NCBI RefSeq assembly: GCF_016026235.1
Contig: NZ_CP065613.1
Source: Escherichia coli
Lineage (GTDB): Bacteria; Pseudomonadota; Gammaproteobacteria; Enterobacterales; Enterobacteriaceae
Reading direction: 5' to 3' (one strand)
DNA: 64,000 bases
Shown here: positions 5,318-5,630 of the stretch, in pieces
Layout: every line of letters begins with the position of its first letter
Position numbering within the stretch: the stretch's first letter is position 1
Program-made: the position numbers and the translations under genes
The notes under the pieces: model-generated
The model's database searches: none
What the model saw: only the letters and a program-made list of their open reading frames with translations
Told to the model about the DNA's origin: nothing

Positions 5318-5630
5318 AGCGTTACCTCAAAATGAGTCAGTAAATTGTGCTTATTTTAGCATTTGGCCTGGCCCGCCCGGCTCGACTGTGATCGCAGAAA
5401 GCCTTTTTCTTCCAGACTTCTATCATGGCGTAAAAATCAAAAAATTACCTGCTTTATTGTGGCGATATTCCATGGGATGGATTAGCACATTTATCTTCGT
5501 TTTGCGAATTACATGACAGTCCGAAACAAGATGAAAAAGTATTTAAAAAAGGGGGAGGAAGAATGAGTAGGACGAATTATTCTGAACCAGAAAGCAATCG
5601 GGCAGCGTCGTGCTGCCCGTGTGCATACTT

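Follow-up and report, generated by a model that had tools for sequence, protein, structure and literature searches.

The 313-bp spacer between dapD and yaeH in this stretch of Escherichia coli DNA (64,000 nucleotides, referred to throughout as the window) is very likely a common short allele that represents the scar of an old internal deletion. With the same high confidence, we regard it as no pristine intergenic region, and read it as the remains of a module of two genes, the first being yaeI and the second an uncharacterised gene for a protein of about 236 amino acids (the 236-aa gene). The window strain encodes no YaeI, the spacer itself encodes nothing new, and the absence of yaeI is a presence/absence polymorphism of a familiar kind at a well-known locus. 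That yaeI is an accessory gene has been published before, and the reconstruction of the spacer as the scar of such a module refines this picture slightly.

The window belongs to E. coli, its closest complete genome being FDAARGOS_943 (99.9% identity over 25 kb). A preliminary description of the locus had noted a yaeH-dapD spacer of about 313 bp with no credible open reading frame (ORF), had placed a yaeI gene of about 0.8 kb here in K-12, and had left the choice between a deletion and a gene never acquired. Its observations hold up well. The gap measures exactly 313 bp (5318-5630), and the only ORFs of at least 30 aa found in it, 5283-5516 and 5363-5485 on the plus strand and 5543-5872 on the minus strand, overlap the flanking genes or their upstream region; RefSeq annotates zero features within the spacer in any matching genome. 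The gene order was given correctly: K-12 DSM 498 reads yaeH, yaeI, dapD, with a yaeI of 813 bp on the same strand as its neighbours in a yaeH-dapD spacer of 1027 bp. That the window lacks yaeI is borne out both by the alignment with K-12 and by a tblastn search of the whole 64 kb with K-12 YaeI, which found no yaeI ORF or fragment (best match, E = 0.26). The features of the locus are collected in Table 1.

Table 1. Features of the dapD-yaeH locus and neighbouring genes, in window coordinates.
Feature	Position	Strand	Description
degP	2106-3530	+	
cdaR	3667-4842	+	
yaeH CDS	4931-5317	-	DUF3461 protein, 128 aa; NCBIfam NF010213, E = 2e-73; identical RefSeq protein WP_000272188.1
yaeH upstream region	5318-5467	-	150 bp, common to short and yaeI-bearing alleles; 5437-5467 is part of the 236-aa gene remnant
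Pseudogene remnant of the 236-aa gene	5437-5487	-	last 16 codons and stop; reads C*SIPWNIATIKQVIF*, with an in-frame stop
Allele-specific filler	5468-5595	.	128 bp; junctions from the K-12 alignment
23-codon ORF	5563-5634	+	preceded by GGGGGAGGA; antisense to the dapD-yaeH direction; probably no gene
Hairpin, putative dapD intrinsic terminator	5599-5619	-	CGGGCAGCACGACGCUGCCCG, just past the dapD stop codon; from a terminator scan
dapD CDS	5631-6455	-	tetrahydrodipicolinate N-succinyltransferase, 274 aa; from the ORF and the RefSeq annotation of matching genomes
glnD	6486-9158	-	

Alignment with K-12 divides the spacer into two shared blocks and a variable segment between them. The yaeH-side block (5318-5467) is 150 bp long and sits in a 250-bp alignment in which 248 of 250 positions are identical, both mismatches falling inside the block, and the dapD-side block (5596-5630) runs for 35 bp with zero mismatches. 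Between them, the window carries 128 bp without similarity to K-12, and K-12 carries 842 bp composed of 11 bp, the yaeI coding sequence and 18 bp, that is, yaeI plus 29 bp. The difference is a replacement and neither a clean excision of yaeI nor a simple deletion relative to K-12, and what was lost is probably a two-gene module. The ends of the variable segment carry no repeats, direct or inverted, whether in the window, in K-12 or in a locus with the full module, and no recombinase gene adjoins the junctions; with junctions free of repeats and no such gene beside them, we rejected an origin from a mobile element (IS, MITE or integron-like cassette).

The shared blocks hold the putative signals of the flanking genes. 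On the dapD side lies the hairpin CGGGCAGCACGACGCTGCCCG, flagged as terminator-like by the scan, with an 8-bp stem that includes 7 GC pairs. It passes a simple scan with its tail ATTGCTTTCT, in which the U-tract is interrupted relative to the ATTTTTTTG of K-12; the junction between the alleles falls directly after CCCGATT, where the K-12 tail gives way to that of the window. Among alleles the hairpin varies in its loop alone, and it has homologues past dapD in the module-bearing genomes of Pseudocitrobacter and Enterobacter. Upstream of yaeH, the 150-bp block hardly varies among eight diverse E. coli alleles. Its counterparts in E. albertii and other Escherichia are about 90% identical, and it can still be recognised in the Pseudocitrobacter and Enterobacter genomes that bear the module; a region of this type is absent in the module-less species. 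The yaeH promoter and 5' UTR presumably lie within 5318-5467. An RpoD-holoenzyme site is listed for the yaeH-yaeI spacer of K-12 (Shimada 2014, PMC3946193), and in the window TGCTAAAAT (5353-5361, reverse complement) resembles an extended -10 element by our own reading; a consensus scan found no promoter. Judged from sequence, the signals of both flanking genes appear to have been kept, the hairpin with a weakened T-run and the yaeH upstream region at its 150 bp.

The remnant of the second gene lies straight upstream of the yaeH leader. Across genera and without exception, the 236-aa proteins have CEPVPWGIA(K/R)IKQVIF as their last residues before the stop, and a tblastn comparison of the family with the spacer of the window recovers this conserved C-terminus with 11 identities in 16 positions (E = 7e-6). 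The rest of the gene is absent from the window filler by nhmmer. K-12, for its part, retains only the last nine codons of the gene, ITRIKQVIF*. Because remnants exist in both the window and K-12, both E. coli alleles descend from a locus that held the 236-aa gene; the K-12 type thus lost this gene alone, and the window type lost yaeI together with nearly all of the 236-aa gene. The protein belongs to an uncharacterised family (WP_157916455.1-like) with conserved CxxC and HxxHCH motifs and has no neighbour among solved structures.

The state of the locus in relatives was taken from one genome per species with YaeH, which gave 80 loci, E. fergusonii not being among them. Of the 75 loci from outside Escherichia, 70 have no yaeI and about 110 bp between dapD and yaeH. 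This module-less spacer is unrelated in sequence to that of the window: its terminator is canonical (AAAAAGCGGG...CCCGCTTTTTTT), and the sequence upstream of yaeH is of another kind. Module-bearing genomes of other genera, on the other hand, have an Escherichia-type hairpin past dapD and an Escherichia-type yaeH upstream region, and it is on these grounds that we assign the flanks of the window to the module-bearing type. The full module, in the order dapD-yaeI-(236-aa gene)-yaeH, was observed in just a few genomes: Escherichia sp. MOD1-EC7003, where yaeI is followed by a further ORF of 236 aa, E. coli GF43, which has both genes, and E. albertii CP117570 and Pseudocitrobacter cyperus, where homologues of the 236-aa protein with 55-61% identity occupy the same place (after the yaeI homologue). 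An Enterobacter has the 236-aa gene alone at this place, without yaeI, its product falling in the same identity range. The reverse state, yaeI only, is found in E. albertii NBRC 107761, E. whittamii and a divergent E. coli; in two Escherichia species other than E. albertii and E. whittamii, too, yaeI is at the site. Escherichia sp. E1V33 carries the 313-bp short allele.

Other sequences have settled in the same spacer elsewhere. Enterobacter wuhouensis has a 762-aa ORF there (locus L062, 1461-3749, minus strand) that, judged by eye, resembles a molybdopterin oxidoreductase, and Enterobacter sp. BIGb0383 has a 57-aa ORF (locus L070, 3619-3792, plus strand) with a lipoprotein-like signal (LTGC). 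The dapD-yaeH spacer seems to be a recurrent insertion point in Enterobacteriaceae.

Within E. coli, the 128-bp filler is present in 3338 of 5426 complete genomes (61.5%), in one copy each, and the short form is therefore the majority allele and no quirk of a strain; in 3337 genomes, at least 80% of the whole spacer is covered in one piece. The K-12-specific yaeI segment by itself matched 2084 of the same 5426, about 2085 genomes carrying yaeI in all, and K-12 is in the minority state at this locus. The preliminary description spoke of a deletion carried by this strain, which is right insofar as yaeI is gone; the loss is not private to the strain, the allele being shared by these thousands of genomes and by another Escherichia species. 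A combined query with filler and yaeI matched 5423 genomes, which is the sum of 3338 and 2085, and its extra places were the five already seen with yaeI alone; from this it follows that no genome carries both filler and yaeI and that yaeI has not been relocated in short-allele genomes, a result that applies at the DNA level, at roughly 65-70% identity or more, and that covers the window's own genome within the 64 kb.

The short allele occurs in O157:H7, O55:H7, O121:H19, SE15, ST131 and BEN2908, and yaeI in K-12, BL21 and O111:H11. Identity of the spacer to that of the window reaches 100% in strain 7/2 and 99.4% in O157:H7, and identity of the filler is just 93.8% in SE15 and in an ST131 strain. 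As early as 2001, yaeI was reportedly among the K-12-specific segments in genome comparisons of K-12 with O157:H7. Leimbach et al. 2017 (PMC5422975) list it as an accessory gene with enrichment in phylogroup A.

Two genomes depart from both common forms. E. coli BS-04 (locus L004, 1348-1644) has a third variant of the short allele and is the sole such genome among the 5426: 28 bp are deleted beside the 236-aa gene remnant, a purine-rich stretch (in window orientation) lies in the half of the filler towards dapD, and identity is only 81.6% over 63 bp. In E. coli strain 1506 (H61, NZ_CP059288.1, 3696192-3697810), an IS1-family element splits the yaeI segment, and a twin-arginine signal protein is annotated separately under the yaeI match; yaeI has thus been inactivated here independently and recently.

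From these comparisons, we propose the following course of events: (i) a two-gene accessory module of yaeI and the 236-aa gene occupies the site between dapD and yaeH in Escherichia and, sporadically, in other Enterobacteriaceae; (ii) the module comes with its own hairpin past dapD and its own yaeH upstream region; (iii) an ancestor of the short allele would have lost the interior of the module by an old internal deletion, leaving the hairpin past dapD, 16 codons from the end of the 236-aa gene, the conserved yaeH upstream region and about 88 bp that can no longer be recognised; (iv) K-12-type alleles would have arisen by a separate deletion that removed the 236-aa gene only; and (v) both forms have persisted alongside each other in E. 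coli and related species. The comparisons show directly the junctions, the allele frequencies, the mutual exclusion of filler and yaeI, the remnant and the contrast with module-less species. We infer that a single deletion event took place, that dapD and yaeH retain working expression signals, and that recombination moves the allele between lineages.

The structural alleles are old and common to several species, given that the short allele is present in E1V33 (94.5% identical to that of the window, with flanking genes at about 90-94%), that the filler of SE15 and ST131 has diverged to the extent given above, and that the yaeI-only junction is common to E. coli, E. albertii and E. whittamii. 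The scar is no clean product of a deletion, since about 88 bp of it aligns to neither yaeI nor the 236-aa gene of any available allele, and it needs several events plus decay, or an insertion of filler DNA. That the module turns up sporadically at this site in further genera could be due to repeated import and not to ancestry, which would make the order of events in Escherichia less certain, and the polarity of the deletion rests on the 80-species sample, without E. fergusonii.

How the scar came to stand in this genome is a separate matter. We give even chances to a non-vertical route, by which the short allele would have entered a K-12-like background through homologous recombination between the conserved flanks; such a route is compatible with a deletion scar and concerns only the path by which the allele arrived. 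The yaeH, dapD and cdaR genes of the window are 100%, 99.4% and 99.6% identical to those of K-12, yet K-12 has yaeI; strain 7/2, conversely, has a spacer identical to that of the window between flanking genes of just 96.6-97.4% identity. Likewise, O111:H11 has yaeI and O121:H19 the filler, both of which we take to be strains of phylogroup B1. A dimorphism of the neighbouring cdaR-yaeH spacer is shuffled relative to that of yaeI, and inside the module itself GF43 and MOD1-EC7003 are mosaic, with adjacent 236-aa genes that are 95.6% identical and yaeI genes that are only 78% identical. Against this route, the strong conservation of the 150-bp and 35-bp flanks keeps any breakpoints from view, and the comparison covers a handful of genomes.

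The cdaR-yaeH spacer (4843-4930) lies between convergent genes. In the window and in K-12 it is 88 bp long and contains a 10-bp perfect inverted repeat (CATTCCCCTC...GAGGGGAATG), and in strain 7/2 and others it consists of an unrelated 53 bp; the two forms are combined variously with the yaeI state. On the other side of the locus, the 3' part of glnD (window 6486-8000) is 95.7% identical to K-12 over 768 comparable bp, alongside 99.4-100% for dapD, yaeH and cdaR, which suggests a recombination boundary near the dapD-glnD junction.

Where it is present, yaeI encodes a metallophosphoesterase (Pfam Metallophos) with a Tat signal, which matches the NCBIfam YaeI equivalog and is partly LpxG-like. 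It is intact in nine alleles, with dN/dS of 0.09-0.26, and intactness together with purifying selection marks it as a working gene that many lineages do without. It is a non-essential accessory gene of uncertain role; the literature yielded nothing useful on b0164 or on the biochemistry of YaeI. Transposon mutants of yaeI are enriched after selection with phage T7 (PMC7414163). The alleles at loci L001 (2662-3474), L108 (1212-2024), L107 (1211-2023) and L100 (1688-2500) are unusually divergent for a single species: compared with K-12, E. coli yaeI alleles show 94%, 87% and 81% nucleotide identity and dS of 0.14-0.74, next to a dS of 0.15-0.20 for the flanking dapD.

Overall, the dS of yaeI rises to about 1.0, against 0.15-0.42 for the flanking genes (2-5 times), and one might see in this a cross-species polymorphism with at least four states (both genes, yaeI only, 236-aa gene only, scar) kept by balancing selection, with the 236-aa protein and YaeI cooperating. 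If that were true, selection on the states of the dapD-yaeH locus could act through envelope or LPS chemistry and phage pressure, in view of the enrichment of yaeI mutants under T7. We consider this improbable, because a weaker constraint on codon usage in yaeI could explain much of the excess in dS.

The filler of the short allele is regarded as non-functional debris. On the yaeH side, its outermost 20 bp (5468-5487) come from the 236-aa gene. At the other end, the 58 bp that run from the hairpin into the dapD-proximal filler are 79% identical to E. albertii, and about 20 bp on this side (5576-5595) may be a diverged yaeI leader resembling that of E. albertii, a likeness that is only suggestive. 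For the roughly 88 bp in the middle, no source was found by BLAST, by local or chained alignment, or by nhmmer. BLAST with 7-base words against K-12 and the 80 related loci gave no match outside the shared flanks; local alignment to six module alleles did not exceed the scores obtained with shuffled sequence; chained global alignments gave z-scores of 1.1-3.2, with conflicting placements for the same filler bases; and nhmmer, with a profile of six yaeI-bearing spacers and a profile of the 236-aa gene, returned zero matches in the filler. A match of 12 bases within the 236-aa gene (ATCCATCCCATG) was too weak for use, as were short peptide-level matches to YaeI (WFELIR, YSRFVPL).

Could the filler instead be a functional replacement, encoding a small RNA or the 23-aa protein of Table 1, and owe its high allele frequency to that? 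The 23-codon ORF has a strong Shine-Dalgarno-like GGGGGAGGA 4 nt ahead of its ATG, it is intact in seven of eight divergent aligned alleles and also in Escherichia sp. E1V33, whose filler we translated, and the indels between alleles sit outside it in the upstream G/A run. Its substitutions among the eight aligned alleles, however, number about six non-synonymous to three synonymous and look nearly neutral; half of it coincides with the dapD hairpin, which is separately constrained; in BS-04 its start has changed from ATG to ACG; the scan found no promoter-like site for it; and a frame of 24 codons is readily open by chance. The region of the filler is unannotated in all 3338 genomes. A structured RNA was rejected as a candidate because its one Rfam match, sroE, is sub-threshold (21 bits against a gathering score of 51), and unremarkable folding z-scores of -1.1 and -1.9 disfavour it further. 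Taken together, we rate a functional filler as very unlikely.

As to the choice left by the preliminary description, its deletion stands in light of the module-type flanks and the retained 3' end of the 236-aa gene, and its other branch falls: that yaeI was never acquired, the 313-bp spacer being ancestral in Escherichia and yaeI inserted later on the way to K-12, is a reading we give hardly any credence, for even though most Enterobacteriaceae are without yaeI at the dapD-yaeH site, the short allele is the E. coli majority and yaeI is accessory and phylogroup A-enriched (PMC5422975), the spacer of the truly module-less species (about 110 bp) is unrelated, the window combines module-type flanks with the contradicting 16-codon remnant at 5437-5487, and yaeI is at the site in E. 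albertii, E. whittamii and the two further Escherichia species.

Annotators should take the dapD-yaeH gap neither for an assembly error nor for the deletion of a single strain. The locus could be a modest example of how recombination reshuffles long-standing structural alleles that lie between highly conserved housekeeping genes, and the uncharacterised family of the 236-aa partner might help to explain the role of YaeI. The overall importance is small, as yaeI is non-essential and its patchiness in E. coli has already been recorded.

The window can be placed among four known arrangements of the locus. The short alleles of O157:H7, O55:H7, O121:H19, SE15 and ST131 share its structure and its junctions, with no structural difference; the alleles vary in a few substituted bases and in short indels within the G/A run. 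The yaeH-yaeI-dapD arrangement of K-12, in which yaeI is b0164 (phosphodiesterase YaeI, NCBIfam NF008460), agrees with the window in its neighbours, their strand and both shared blocks, and differs in having 842 bp with yaeI where the window has the 128-bp filler and in its T-run past the dapD hairpin, which is broken in the window. The module-less spacer of Citrobacter, Klebsiella, Enterobacter and others (about 110 bp) is like the window in that it is without yaeI and dapD and yaeH are adjacent, whereas its sequence is alike only in the last 10 bp or so before the yaeH ATG. The full-module loci, finally, have a dapD hairpin and a yaeH upstream region of the window's type, and their 236-aa gene has the same 3' end; what sets them apart is about 1.5 kb with both genes, gone from the window, where 16 codons of the second gene are left.
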